Source: Spirochaetia bacterium (GTDB taxonomy: Bacteria; Spirochaetota; Spirochaetia; UBA9216). From it: a stretch of DNA of 64,000 nucleotides. The notes below the pieces were generated by a model. That model had not been told where the DNA came from and did no database searches. It saw only the letters and a program-made list of their open reading frames with translations. The DNA lies in assembly GCA_965140585.1 (NCBI GenBank), contig OZ223272.1, forward strand, positions 224,001 through 288,000, given 5' to 3'. This document shows positions 477 to 55,937 of this stretch, in pieces; position 1 is the first letter of the stretch, and each line of letters opens with the position of its first letter. A program made the translations under genes and the position numbers.

Positions 477-1352
477 CTAATCTATATCCGAACTTTCACT
501 GATTAGTAGGGAGAATAATATCAGAATAAATCCGATAATTGCCTGAAATGAGAAACGTTCATGAAGAAAAATCGCCGACAGGACAAGAGCAAAAACTGAT
601 TCAAATGAATACAGGATTGATGCCCTGGAGGCTTCCAGATATTTCATTGCCACGTTTGAAAGCAGATGGCAGACAAGGGAACCAAGCACAATAATATAGA
701 GCATCTGGGAGATCTCATATGCTCCCCACTGAATCGAAGGTGCTGACTCAAAACCAAGAAATACTAATAGTGAGAATACTCCGGCTGCAAACATTTCATA
801 AAACGTCAGGTTAATAGGAACATAGATTTTTGAATAATGATCAAAGCCGATGATTCCGCCGGCATAGAAGACGGCAGCACCGAGAGTAAGGATATCGCCG
901 GGGTTAAATTTGAGACCGTTCTCGAGGGATATAAACGCAACCCCGACTATACAGACAAGAGCACTTATAAAAGCTCTGACGCCCGGACTCTTTCCTTTCA
1001 AAATCCAAACTGCAAAGGGGACGATCACAACATAAACCGATGTGAGAAAACCTGATTTACTTGCAGTTGTATATTGAATACCTATAGTCTGCAGGGCGAA
1101 ACCGCCGAAGAGGAAAACACCGAGAATAATTCCTGCCTTTATTTCCTGAATACTGGTCTTAATAATTGATTTTCTGAAAATTAAAAAAAGAATAACACTG
1201 GCCGACAGAAAACGGACAGCGTTAATCCAGTTCGGAGGCAGATATGCAACAGCATCCTTTACAACAACATACTCTCCGCCCCATAAAAAAGCAGAGATAA
1301 GAAGAAATATTTCAGCCTTGCGGCCGCTTTTATTAAGTTTGAGAACGCCCAT
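477..1352 (-). CDS. EamA/DMT family transporter
   Basis: 291 aa, ~10 hydrophobic segments, duplicated EamA pattern (FLWGG, GD.LTL.AA, FESVFA). Confidence 0.9.
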   Translation of the reverse strand: MGVLKLNKSGRKAEIFLLISAFLWGGEYVVVKDAVAYLPPNWINAVRFLSASVILFLIFRKSIIKTSIQEIKAGIILGVFLFGGFALQTIGIQYTTASKSGFLTSVYVVIVPFAVWILKGKSPGVRAFISALVCIVGVAFISLENGLKFNPGDILTLGAAVFYAGGIIGFDHYSKIYVPINLTFYEMFAAGVFSLLVFLGFESAPSIQWGAYEISQMLYIIVLGSLVCHLLSNVAMKYLEASRASILYSFESVFALVLSAIFLHERFSFQAIIGFILILFSLLISESSDID

Positions 1353-3021
1353 AATGAATTTTAAGCCTCCATTGAAGTATCAGATTAGTCAGAGTCATCA
1401 CAAGCCAGTACAGCTGAACTCCGGAGGGCATATTGTAAATAACAAGGAACATGAGAACCGGAATAACATAGGACATAATATGCATGCTTCCCACAGAATC
1501 CTGGGGAGCCTGAATATATCTTGACTGAATTATTGAAATACCAAGTATTATTAAGGGAAGAATTCTTAATTTTGTCCAGCCCGCTACAGGAATTGTAAAA
1601 GGTGAAAAATTCCAAATATATTCGGGAATGGAGATATCGGGAATCCAACCCGGAATGAAGACAGCAGATCTGAAATCGATGTCGGTCAGAAGAAGTATAT
1701 ACAGAAGAATAAAAACCGGAAGATGAATTATCATAGGCAGAAAACTGGAGCGCGGTTTTACATCGTTTTTTTCAAAAAGCGCCAGAACTTCCTGATTCAT
1801 CTTTTCGGTATTCCATTGAAACTGCTTCTTTAATTCCGATATTTTCGGACCAAGAAGCTGCATTCGTATCGCATTTCCATATGTACGTCGTGATAGTGGA
1901 AATATCGCAGCCTGTACCGCAAGGACAAGTATAATTATTCCAATGCCATAATTGGGAATGATTCTGTATAGGAGATTCAGAATCACATGGACAATACCCG
2001 AAAGTATATCGGTAAACGAATCACTGCCGGAAAGAAGCTTCAGATTTAGATCTGCGGTACTGATTCCTCCGCTTTCATAACTATCGTATCCCGAGAGCAC
2101 TGCTGAATCCTTCGGCCCATAATATACGAGATATGTATCATCGACAGAACCTCCGTCACCCCTTCTCTGAATATAAAAACTGTTCTGCTTAACAAGACCG
2201 TCAAGCGAACTGTCCACCCAGATCGCTGAATAACCAAGGCTGACAGGCGCTACAACACCTGCAAAATACCGGCCCTCTACGCCCATCCATTTAAAACTTC
2301 CTTCAAGTTCAAGATATTCCTTGGTTTCGGGAACAGCGAGATTCTTCTTTTCACCCTCGCTTTCCAGACAGAAATACCGGTAAACATAACTTCGTTCAGT
2401 TTCCTGAAACCCGGGCCCCAGCTGCGGACCGAATCCCAAACTGTAAATATTACCGGCTGAATCCTGCGGTAATGAATAGTCCTGTTCAGGATTAATTTTA
2501 AGATTGAATCGGAACATATAATCAGAATCATCAAAATAATAGTTCAGGACAACCCGGAATCGCTCAGAATCAGATATATAATCAGTGTAAAAGGAGACCC
2601 CGTCCTCAAGTTCCTTTACTCTATACGGGCCGTTTAATTCATACCCTTCAAAACCGCCGGCTGAAAGCCTGAAAGGATAGAGACCGCTTTCATCTGAATA
2701 AACCAGATCTGTCGGTTTTCCGTCCGGTTCTTCATAATCCTTTAAAAGCAGCGAATGAAGGGTTCCGTCATTGAGATTAAAGACAGCAGTCAGCAGGTCT
2801 GTTTCGTAACTGTAGTAGCCTGATTTTTTCGGGGAGACCGATTTATAAAAACTGTTTTTATCAGACGGATGCTCTTCAGCAGTTTCAACTAATGCAGCAG
2901 GAGACGGTTCAACATCAGATTGGGATTCCCTATCGGGAAGAAAGAAAGTGTTGTAGATGTATACCGTGATAAAAATGACGGCAATGCTTAGAATGCCGGT
3001 AAGCCATATTCTTCTGTTCAT
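1333..3021 (-). CDS. yidC: Membrane protein insertase YidC, divergent orphan paralog
   Basis: N-terminal TM anchor, large periplasmic domain (W.GVEGRYF, YYGPKD), then NYGIGIIIL..FPL, cytoplasmic helical hairpin, WIPDIS.P and MPSGVQLYW core motifs. Confidence 0.88.
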   Translation of the reverse strand: MNRRIWLTGILSIAVIFITVYIYNTFFLPDRESQSDVEPSPAALVETAEEHPSDKNSFYKSVSPKKSGYYSYETDLLTAVFNLNDGTLHSLLLKDYEEPDGKPTDLVYSDESGLYPFRLSAGGFEGYELNGPYRVKELEDGVSFYTDYISDSERFRVVLNYYFDDSDYMFRFNLKINPEQDYSLPQDSAGNIYSLGFGPQLGPGFQETERSYVYRYFCLESEGEKKNLAVPETKEYLELEGSFKWMGVEGRYFAGVVAPVSLGYSAIWVDSSLDGLVKQNSFYIQRRGDGGSVDDTYLVYYGPKDSAVLSGYDSYESGGISTADLNLKLLSGSDSFTDILSGIVHVILNLLYRIIPNYGIGIIILVLAVQAAIFPLSRRTYGNAIRMQLLGPKISELKKQFQWNTEKMNQEVLALFEKNDVKPRSSFLPMIIHLPVFILLYILLLTDIDFRSAVFIPGWIPDISIPEYIWNFSPFTIPVAGWTKLRILPLIILGISIIQSRYIQAPQDSVGSMHIMSYVIPVLMFLVIYNMPSGVQLYWLVMTLTNLILQWRLKIHYGRSQT

Positions 3022-54027: not shown

Positions 54028-54056
54028 TTGACAAATATTCTGAATACTGTTTAAAT
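54028..54056 (+). promoter_or_regulatory. Sigma70-type promoter of leader/attenuator
   Basis: TTGACA-N17-TTAAAT in an AT-rich region. Confidence 0.6.
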
Positions 54057-54087
54057 ATAAACATCTTAACACAAGGAGACAGATTTG

Positions 54088-54159
54088 ATGATTAGAGTAA
54101 TTACATGCGTCACAGCGCTTTCTTATTTTAATTTTGTTTCATCGGAGAATCTGTCGTAA
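54088..54159 (+). CDS. Putative 23-aa leader peptide MIRVITCVTALSYFNFVSSENLS
   Basis: Strong AAGGAG RBS at ~54073-54078; ORF end overlaps a predicted antiterminator. Confidence 0.6.
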   Translation: MIRVITCVTALSYFNFVSSENLS

Positions 54160-54183
54160 CCTTGATTTATATAGCAGTTGGTT

Positions 54184-54215
54184 GCCGTGATTCTCTGAAT
54201 CACGGCTTTTTTTTT
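54184..54215 (+). terminator. Attenuator terminator 1
   Basis: GCCGTGATTC-tct-GAATCACGGC, perfect 10 bp, plus T9. Confidence 0.88.
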
Positions 54216-54231
54216 GCTGTATTACAGCCGG

Positions 54232-54266
54232 AAGCCGTAGACTTTACCAGTTTGCGGCTTTTTTTT
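54232..54266 (+). terminator. Attenuator terminator 2
   Basis: AAGCCGTAGACT-ttacc-AGTTTGCGGCTT (12 bp with G-U pairs) plus T-run. Confidence 0.8.
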
Positions 54267-54310
54267 CATCCGGAACATATCCCCGGATGATGTCAAAAAG
54301 GAGAGATAAA

Positions 54311-54556
54311 ATGTGTGCAGACGGTTATGACTACAGAACGGCTGCAGGGCTTCACAAGGACCGGCTTCGTGAAGCAGAATCAATCAGACTGGCTAAGAGA
54401 GCCAAATTGGCCTCTAAGGCTGCAATTGCAGATTCCCCTGCGATAGCAGTCAGCCGGATGGCGGAACCAACAGTGTTAAAGACCGCCGCAGAGAGCATCA
54501 GAATTTCGCTTGGCAGAAAACTAATTTCGCTTGGTGAGAAACTGATTGAAGCCTGA
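54311..54556 (+). CDS. Small basic helical hypothetical protein (81 aa)
   Basis: AAGGAG RBS before ATG 54311; L.EAE..RL and LG.KLI.LGEKL amphipathic segments. Confidence 0.72.
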   Translation: MCADGYDYRTAAGLHKDRLREAESIRLAKRAKLASKAAIADSPAIAVSRMAEPTVLKTAAESIRISLGRKLISLGEKLIEA

Positions 54557-54637
54557 TTCGTCCACGACGAGGACTCATTAAAAGTGAGGGGGAATAATGA
54601 AATGAATAGAGGAATTTTTTAATTAAGACTTAAACTT

Positions 54638-54670
54638 GAGCTGACCGGAGAACTCTCGGTCAGCTCTTTA
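54638..54670 (+). terminator. Terminator after small protein gene
   Basis: GAGCTGACCG...CGGTCAGCTC followed by TTTATATTT. Confidence 0.72.
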
Positions 54671-54767
54671 TATTTAGAGATAATTTCAAAACTAATCGAG
54701 TTTAAACGAAATTCTATACCTTACAATTTTTGTTGACATATATATTGTTATATATTAGCATCCTGAG

Positions 54768-55937
54768 ATGAAGAAATCGACCAATGTAATCCGCATCTCA
54801 ATACTTGCAGCAGTACTATTGCTTACTACAATTCAGGGACGGCTTCATGCTATTCTGAAGCTGTTTCCTCCTGTTGATGCATTCTGCCCCTTCGGAGGAC
54901 TTGAAGCAGTTTACGGACTTATCAAATACGATGCCATGATTAGGAAAATTGCCTTAAGCAGTTTTATCCTGTTAGGAGCTGTTTTAATTACGGCGTTATT
55001 TTTCAGACGAAGTTTCTGCGGCAATATTTGTCCGCTCGGATTTCTTCAAGAAATATCTGCAAAGATAGGAAGAAAGTTCTTTGTAAAAAGAAAGCCGATT
55101 CCCTCTGTTATTGACCGTAAACTGAGATACCTAAAATACGTTATTCTTGCTGTTGTAATAGCAGGAACCTGGTACACGATGAATTTGATTTTCAGACCCT
55201 GGGACCCATGGGCTGCCTACCATCATATAGGCTCGGATGAACTGTTTGCTGAATATCTTTTCGGTGTGATTATACTGGCTCTTTCGGTAGTAGTATCATT
55301 TTTTGACGATCGTTTCTTCTGTAAATATTTGTGCCCCATGGGCGCATTCCTGGCTCCCGTATCCAGAATTGGTATCTTTAAAATCCGCAATGACAGAGAG
55401 AAATGCATTTCATGCGGATGCTGCGATCATATCTGTCAGATGAACATTCCAATCGCGGATAAAACCGTAATTACATCAGCGGAATGTATTTCCTGTATGG
55501 AATGTGTAGAAATATGTCCTGTAGATTCGCTCTCTGTTGAAGCCCCGTCTGCCGGTGAGAAAAAAAGAAACCTTAAACCGTCCCTGCTTATAATTCTCAC
55601 AGCTTCTGTATTTGTAATTGTTATTGCAGTAACTACATTAACTGGAAGCTATGTATGGAAGGCTCCGACCGGACTCCCTCACAAAACAGAAAGACTGCTG
55701 CTTGGACCTGCACAGATAAAAGACAACAATAATTTTATTGATATCATTCAGATATACCGGATAAGCCCCGACTATATAATTTCCGAATGGAACATAGGAG
55801 AAGAGGAATTATCAGAACCATTTGAGGATCTGGGAATTGATCCGAAATTTGTCAGAGATTTTGTTGAAAAAATATACAGTGAAGCGGGACTTGATCCTAA
55901 AAATCTACTCGGAGGCGGAGGCCGCGGACAGCATTAA
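54768..55937 (+). CDS. Membrane polyferredoxin (YccM/NosR-like 4Fe-4S binding protein)
   Basis: DAFCPFGG, FCG.ICP.G..QE, FCKYLCP.GA, two CxxCxxC..C ferredoxin motifs. Confidence 0.9.
   Translation: MKKSTNVIRISILAAVLLLTTIQGRLHAILKLFPPVDAFCPFGGLEAVYGLIKYDAMIRKIALSSFILLGAVLITALFFRRSFCGNICPLGFLQEISAKIGRKFFVKRKPIPSVIDRKLRYLKYVILAVVIAGTWYTMNLIFRPWDPWAAYHHIGSDELFAEYLFGVIILALSVVVSFFDDRFFCKYLCPMGAFLAPVSRIGIFKIRNDREKCISCGCCDHICQMNIPIADKTVITSAECISCMECVEICPVDSLSVEAPSAGEKKRNLKPSLLIILTASVFVIVIAVTTLTGSYVWKAPTGLPHKTERLLLGPAQIKDNNNFIDIIQIYRISPDYIISEWNIGEEELSEPFEDLGIDPKFVRDFVEKIYSEAGLDPKNLLGGGGRGQH

Follow-up and report, generated by a model that had tools for sequence, protein, structure and literature searches.

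Classical attenuators of amino-acid operons (trp, his, phe and thr) have a short translated frame ahead of an intrinsic terminator; three helices (1:2, 2:3 and 3:4) compete in the leader RNA, and the position of the ribosome decides between them. In antibiotic-inducible leaders (erm, cat and ABC-F) the downstream gene is a resistance determinant and the ribosome is arrested in the leader in a drug-dependent manner. Most known attenuators that sense ribosomes precede amino-acid or resistance genes, and most come from Proteobacteria and Firmicutes. Here, a locus was analysed in a 64,000-nucleotide (nt) stretch of the genome of a Spirochaetia bacterium (contig OZ223272.1, positions 224,001 to 288,000; hereafter the window), in which a 23-codon leader frame and two terminators, T1 and T2, lie ahead of the gene for an 81-residue protein. 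An original prediction, made from the sequence alone, had described it as a leader-peptide attenuator with two relay-coupled terminators. The present analysis indicates that the locus is probably a ribosome-mediated transcription attenuator, in which three competing helices and a second terminator control an orphan small helical protein.

The nearest published analogues that were found are two leaders that, in the available parts of the reports, are both Rho-dependent and have no second terminator (PMC12218461; PMC12121999). As far as the available part of the first report goes, the duf1127 gene of Sinorhizobium meliloti is preceded by an attenuator that depends on an upstream open reading frame (uORF) and works by Rho-dependent termination at a split rut-like element; the region of the ribosome-binding site (RBS) pairs with uORF codons when it is free of ribosomes, untranslated RNA is read through, and the authors propose that ribosome availability and translation efficiency are monitored (PMC12218461). 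The accessible part of the second report presents the toiL uORF, which precedes topAI-yjhQ in Escherichia coli, as a general sensor of ribosome stalling that responds to several antibiotic classes and has a non-resistance target, with occlusion of the downstream RBS and Rho-dependent termination inside the gene (PMC12121999). A search of the full-text literature for tandem terminators with a leader peptide, two-terminator ribosome-mediated attenuation and spirochaete attenuators found no such design, with most subscription journals lying outside the search.

Organization of the leader region

The leader RBS, the 23-codon frame, T1, T2, a third hairpin, the 81-residue gene and its terminator were all present, each at or within a few bases of the position that the original prediction had given it. 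The features from the promoter to the third hairpin are as follows.

54029..54057, plus strand: putative promoter, read from the sequence; perfect -35 hexamer (54029-54034), weak -10 element (about 54052-54057)
54073..54078, plus strand: leader RBS, 9 nt ahead of the start codon; the spacing is 7-11 nt across the nine loci compared
54078..54084, plus strand: segment 1, the 5' strand of helix P1 (anti-antiterminator), in the spacer between RBS and start codon; the helix here reaches about 54091
54088..54159, plus strand: leader frame, 23 codons and a stop codon, with an in-frame alternative start at 54085
54144..54161, plus strand: segment 2, the final leader codons and the stop codon; it holds the P1 3' strand (54149-54155) and the antiterminator 5' strand (54144-54151 and 54156-54161)
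54180..54197, plus strand: antiterminator 3' strand; 54180-54185 doubles as the 3' arm of hairpin P2, and 54189-54196 is the T1 5' arm and loop
54184..54215, plus strand: terminator T1, from the terminator scan; stem 54184-54206 (10 bp, 3-nt loop), then nine U
54216..54228, plus strand: small hairpin Hx, between T1 and T2
54200..54241, plus strand: proposed relay helix; T1 3' arm and U-tract (54200-54210) with T2 5' arm (54230-54241), enclosing Hx
54230..54266, plus strand: terminator T2, from the terminator scan; stem 54230-54262 (core 54234-54258), then eight U
54267..54289, plus strand: hairpin H3, between T2 and the gene RBS, from folding

Folding reproduced all three of the pairings named in the original prediction (54143-51 with 54189-97, 54156-61 with 54180-85 and 54202-09 with 54231-38). 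The fold of the RNA from 54060 to 54310 had an energy of -85.8 kcal/mol, compared to -53.2 ± 4.4 kcal/mol for 200 shuffled sequences, none of which folded as well (z = -7.35). Four terminator-like sites were found between 53400 and 55200, compared to 1.1 ± 1.3 in shuffles. A strict terminator scan was carried out on the whole 4.85-Mb genome; among the 399 terminators that it predicted, T1 and T2 were the sole pair on the same strand lying within 150 nt of each other. The locus has the parts expected of an attenuator, namely a translated short frame with its own RBS, an intrinsic terminator between this frame and the gene, an antiterminator whose 5' strand lies in the final leader codons, where a ribosome can cover it, and a competing upstream helix, P1.

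Nine loci from the class Spirochaetia were compared, eight with two terminators and one (L024) with a single terminator. Homologues of the 81-residue protein were found in five of ten other genomes of the same family, and the layout upstream was common to every homologue: a -35 hexamer, a strong RBS, the leader frame, T1, Hx, T2, a further hairpin and the gene. A covariance model (R1) was then built from the leader through T1 and used to search 151 genomes of the class. Three weak matches, at 34.6-38.6 bits, were judged by inspection to have the same architecture made from different sequence.

L024 (genome G145): one terminator, 64-residue protein
L025 (genome G046): two terminators, 60-residue protein
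L026 (genome G005): two terminators, 105-residue protein

Coding potential of the leader frame

The leader frame was open at all nine loci, with a length of 18-30 codons and a start codon 7-11 nt after the RBS. Shuffled versions of each frame stayed open in only 13-26% of cases, and the other two reading frames were interrupted by stop codons in 16 of 18 cases. The middle of the encoded peptide varied without constraint, also within the window's genus (two genomes), with the paired RNA segments unchanged; some similarity was seen among the N-terminal residues, and the leaders of the homologues (18-23 codons) ended in Gly or Glu, Asp or Asn, Leu and Ser. The distance from the stop codon to T1 was 21-25 nt at every one of the nine loci. 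Comparison of the sequences indicates that the leader frame is real and translated, as had been proposed, given that it is open at all of these loci although its sequence varies.

The idea that early Ile, Val, Thr and Cys codons might sense amino-acid limitation was not borne out, as these codons were not conserved among the leaders. Amino-acid operons are marked by a cluster of codons for the amino acid that they produce; no such cluster was found, and the leader in the window has no codon run. A classical attenuator that senses aromatic residues, with stalling at Tyr or Phe codons when charged tRNA is scarce, would be in keeping with the presence of at least one Tyr in each of the nine leaders, with 17 Tyr and 13 Phe among 207 leader residues (a raw count by eye) and with the four Tyr, adjacent pairs included, in both L024 and L025. 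However, the window leader contains only a single Tyr and two Phe, with no run of either, A+T-rich sequence favours Tyr and Phe codons anyway, and the regulated protein matched no biosynthetic, transporter or synthetase family in Pfam or NCBIfam and has no conserved neighbour of such a kind. Sensing of aromatic residues is therefore considered quite unlikely.

Competing helices around terminator T1

Three mutually exclusive helices, P1, the antiterminator and T1, were kept at all nine loci. In P1, which had been overlooked in the original prediction, the spacer between the RBS and the start codon is paired with the 3' part of the leader frame. This helix was present in the minimum-energy fold of every lineage and, at all nine loci, in the fold predicted for the nascent RNA at the stage where T1 has yet to emerge. 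Within the family P1 was invariant, third codon positions included; it differed by one base in L023, and in L024, L025 and L026 it was formed at the same place by wholly different sequences. In a ten-sequence alignment, which was fitted to the structure of the covariance model and thus leans towards that model, P1 was paired in 100% of sequences and four of its seven pairs had changed on both sides. Modelling predicts that P1 makes untranslated RNA terminate as well.

In the antiterminator, the same 3' part of the leader frame, together with the stop-codon hairpin P2, is paired with the 5' arm and loop of T1. Its energy ranged from -13.4 to -25.5 kcal/mol across the nine loci (-16 to -20 kcal/mol in the window), and at each of them it overlapped the 3' strand of P1. 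When the same leader segment was paired with 399 other terminators in a narrow test of five lineages, only 0-1.25% of these paired as well; in a wider test, 0.25-4% of the null was as good at every locus except L026. Three T1 stem pairs in the window lineage differ from those of the rest of the family, and an additional base in segment 2 there brings the contiguous pairs with the altered T1 back to eight. Covariation in the T1 stem was seen at three of ten pairs in one alignment and at five of ten in the ten-sequence alignment; T2 is likewise conserved, with covariation in its stem. These results upheld the earlier proposal that the last codons of the leader sequester the 5' arm of T1: the pairing is conserved and far stronger than that with the other terminators of the genome, and the check on folding and conservation of the alternative pairings reproduced the antiterminator and found it kept at all nine loci.

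The predicted barrier from the antiterminator to T1 was 8.4-13.8 kcal/mol at the nine loci (13.7 kcal/mol in the window) and therefore the antiterminator, once formed, should outlast the passage of the polymerase. The barrier from P1 to the antiterminator was 10.8-13.7 kcal/mol at four loci. When codons 1-6 were masked to represent a ribosome, the equilibrium probability of T1 dropped in three of five lineages. Comparison and modelling demonstrated the leader frame and the three mutually exclusive helices, and showed that they are conserved.

The second terminator and its possible link to the first

At the eight two-terminator loci, the T2 5' arm never had a better upstream partner than the 3' arm of T1 with its U-tract, and the relay helix formed by the two, which encloses Hx, was always the minimum-energy fold before the 3' arm of T2 exists. 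T1 and T2 share basal stem pairs within each lineage, and these pairs differ between lineages. Hairpin Hx, of varying sequence, was present at all eight loci; H3 was found in the window's family and in L025 and was absent from L026.

The retention of Hx at all eight loci, with a similar loop in L004, L005, L007 and L023, and the fact that T2 has no convincing antiterminator of its own, would suit a switch set by an RNA-binding protein or a ligand, for example the gene product bound to Hx or H3, with translation of the leader being incidental. Against such a switch, the loop sequences are not conserved across lineages, an open frame with a well-spaced RBS is maintained at all nine loci and the distance from stop codon to T1 is fixed. 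Rfam also gave no family at threshold: there were nine weak matches, including the trpB motif (RF04312) and Termite-leu (RF01730), all of which fell under the gathering threshold, the top scores being 25.9 compared to a threshold of 59 and 22.6 compared to a threshold of 51. Control by a bound protein or ligand is considered very unlikely.

Occurrence in other genomes

The exact leader pattern occurred as one copy per genome in six of 11 genomes of the family, with no occurrences of a reversed-pattern control. Homologues of the 81-residue protein were not found in 30 genomes from 30 other families of the class. A scan of metagenomes yielded one locus, with a leader identical to that of L007. 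Most of the weak R1 matches (L027-L037) were plain terminators or other attenuators. Two of them, L031 (genome G117) and L037 (genome G049), were leader peptides of classical appearance with many Ile and Leu residues, and a terminator lies after each of them; judged by eye from the translated starts, one of the genes behind these leaders resembles isopropylmalate/citramalate synthase and the other acetolactate synthase.

In a sample of the phylum (151 genomes), only one further weak look-alike was found, L044, in a genome of another class (G232; about 1500-1650, minus strand). It has a 14-codon hydrophobic frame and one terminator, with no gene on the same strand after it, and the spacer ahead of its start codon pairs with its own codons 4-6. 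L044 may echo the P1 design from afar, or the match, at 34 bits, may be due to chance.

In genome G008, R1 matched a locus (L023) at which the leader, T1, Hx and T2 are kept, at 84.8 bits, and the gene is absent downstream. This genome, in which no homologue of the protein was found, is 81% complete. Such a locus would be expected if the leader unit were a gene of its own, encoding a micro-protein or a small RNA that ends at T1 or T2, with the two terminators as a fail-safe end and the 81-residue gene expressed by leakage or from an unseen promoter; the look-alike L044, with its frame and terminator but no gene on the same strand, and the similarity among the N-terminal residues of the leaders point the same way. 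However, the conserved complementarity between the end of the leader and the T1 5' arm would be useless in a plain terminator, and the peptide varies freely within one genus while the paired segments stay constant. The gap between T2 and the gene is only 40-45 nt, and the consensus promoter scan listed no promoter-like site in it, which is also the outcome of the check for an independent promoter downstream of T2. About 100 nt that follow T2 in L023 (contig 300 of G008) are also present on contig 281 (L038), and a repeat or mobile element may, from the sequence, have replaced the small-protein gene there; because this shared repeat follows T2, secondary loss of the gene is suggested. An independent leader gene is accordingly regarded as unlikely.

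Proposed mechanism

From the arrangement of the attenuator we infer the ribosome positions, the signal and the effect of the relay. Transcription would start about 10 nt ahead of the strong leader RBS. If no ribosome is loaded, segment 1 would pair with segment 2 to form P1, leaving the 5' arm of T1 free, so that T1 would form and transcription would stop. With a fast ribosome that has reached the stop codon, both segment 2 and the stop-codon hairpin P2 would be covered, and T1 would again form and stop transcription; because the stop codon lies 21-25 nt before T1 at all nine loci, the terminating ribosome would not block T1. A loaded ribosome that is slow, or halts, before the last third of the frame would hold segment 1 or keep it away. 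Segment 2 would then be free to pair with the T1 5' arm, and with the antiterminator kinetically trapped the polymerase would read through. The rule originally put forward, that full translation terminates and stalling reads through, fits this geometry of the locus.

T2 would act as a second checkpoint. On read-through, the 3' arm of T1, being unpaired, would pair with the 5' arm of T2 around Hx, weakening T2, whereas if T1 had folded but failed to terminate, T2 would meet the polymerase at full strength. The signal would be that translation slows in general with respect to transcription, as antibiotics or starvation might cause. The absence of a codon run, the variable peptide and its narrow range of lengths favour a device that senses how fast translation runs, relative to transcription, over one that senses a single amino acid. 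A more far-reaching version is conceivable but rather doubtful: a two-stage, leak-proof attenuator with one leader frame as its timer, set by the speed of the ribosome against that of the polymerase, in which the switch is passed from T1 to T2 by way of their shared arm and the output, made only under translation stress, is an orphan, fast-evolving two-helix protein, possibly a potent or toxic effector that is kept tightly silent.

Several results weigh against the mechanism in whole or in part. The antiterminator of L026 was no better than chance, with 27% of the null as good; it is not the minimum-energy fold there, and the barrier from P1 to the antiterminator at that locus was approximately zero. 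At four of the nine loci this barrier was only 5.1-7.4 kcal/mol, and because of these low values P1 may not hold everywhere. In two of five family lineages T1 won at equilibrium whatever ribosome position was masked. A search for sequencing runs gave five, none of them recorded as RNA. The covariation counts are based on few events, as the number of independent lineages is only about four. G008 has kept the leader and both terminators but not the gene, and L024 manages with a single terminator. As for the promoter, which is the weakest of the elements, the perfect -35 hexamer is kept in relatives at the same distance from the leader, which is consistent with the original assignment, but the -10 element is poor in this genome and the consensus promoter scan did not include this site.

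For the relay the results were mixed. Taken singly, the relay duplexes, with energies of -11.8 to -17.2 kcal/mol, reached only the 0.8-8.6 percentile of random terminator pairs from the genome. T2 was at least 91% formed at equilibrium in all simulations, so that the relay was not shown by equilibrium folding; the T2 state was more stable than the relay at six of the eight loci; and the predicted barrier, at 2.4-7.0 kcal/mol, points to a labile relay. Of the original proposal that one switch disables both terminators, the relay pairing itself stood, being conserved and the best partner at all eight loci, but the low barrier and the advantage of T2 at six of them speak against complete disabling. 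On this modelling the relay is plausible, if somewhat doubtful, and would at best weaken T2 partially. Even a partial weakening would make the switch sharper, since a folded T1 leaves T2 with its full activity. These points notwithstanding, the sequence comparisons and folding models together indicate that the attenuator is real and conserved and is a new version of ribosome-mediated attenuation.

The regulated protein and its neighbourhood

The features downstream of the leader are as follows.

54298..54556, plus strand: RBS (about 54298-54305) and gene (54311-54556) for the 81-residue two-helix protein
54586..54622, plus strand: strong RBS and 6-codon mini-frame (54602-54622), 3' of the gene
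54638..54666, plus strand: terminator of the unit, from the terminator scan

AlphaFold modelled the 81-residue protein as two long helices, with a mean predicted local distance difference test score of 76. No match was found in Pfam, NCBIfam, PADLOC or PHROGs; in the PDB there was no match by sequence profile (best E value 0.74) and Foldseek gave no matches; and an Atlas feature search returned only unnamed clusters (0.84-0.85). A profile search of 1.84 billion representatives yielded six proteins at E ≤ 0.001, five of them at E ≤ 1e-10, and one of the six was a repetitive protein of 480 residues. The original statement that the regulated gene is neither biosynthetic nor a known resistance gene was supported, with no family assigned by either Pfam or NCBIfam. 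No resistance family (methyltransferase, acetyltransferase, ABC-F or efflux) was represented by the protein or by the neighbours that were scanned.

The protein encoded at L024 aligned to the family of the window's protein over both conserved ends (hhalign E value 2e-4), and those of L025 and L026 had only the C-terminal glycine-spaced helix in common with it. No relatives of the L024 and L025 proteins were found within their own orders. Among the neighbours scanned at L024, L025, L026 and the window there was no conserved gene. At L024 (about 1060-1287, minus strand), the small-protein gene and the start of a gene for 76 residues overlap, which suggests translational coupling there; the 76-residue gene has a sub-threshold match to DUF2007 (20.2 bits, with a cutoff of 25.7).

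A mini-frame of 6-13 codons with a very strong RBS was located between the small-protein gene and the terminator at six of the seven gene-carrying family loci, namely that in the window, L003, L004, L006, L007 and L026 (in the last at about 1030-1075, minus strand); L005 does not have it, and the encoded peptides are not conserved. Candidate roles are protection of the mRNA, a second attenuator or translational coupling. Read-through of the stop codon from the gene into the mini-frame was rejected, as the frames agreed at only three of five loci, by eye, which is within chance. Further downstream in the window, a good promoter-like site (54733-54761; 10 of 12) lies just ahead of the gene for a membrane polyferredoxin (54768-55937), and because it directly precedes that gene, the latter is probably a separate unit.

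Comparison with known systems

The locus would extend ribosome-sensing attenuation to a little-studied marine spirochaete lineage. Because it has no codon signature and its protein has no known relatives, it may point to an undescribed translation-stress response. If the linkage of the terminators is true, one frame with two arm-linked terminators would multiply the on/off ratio without a second sensor, a principle that is testable and could be reused in synthetic biology; the nine loci provide ready natural variants for mutational tests.

Like the trp, his, phe and thr attenuators, the locus has a translated frame, three overlapping helices and a logic based on ribosome position. Unlike in those attenuators, segment 1 is located in the spacer before the start codon instead of within the frame, no amino acid is represented by a run of codons, the target is an orphan small protein and there are two terminators per leader. 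The logic is also similar to that of the erm, cat and ABC-F leaders, but here no resistance gene is located downstream.

As far as the available part of the report allows the comparison, the duf1127 leader is alike in having a uORF attenuator before a small protein and an RBS region that pairs with uORF codons (PMC12218461). It differs in that termination there is Rho-dependent, whereas two intrinsic terminators are present here, and the two proteins are unrelated; moreover, the duf1127 RBS region pairs with the start of the uORF, whereas the pairing here involves the end of the frame, and RNA that is not translated is read through there but is predicted to terminate here (PMC12218461). The toiL leader, in the accessible part of its description, shares with this locus a short uORF that controls a non-resistance gene; it has neither the intrinsic terminators nor the proposed second checkpoint of the spirochaete locus (PMC12121999).

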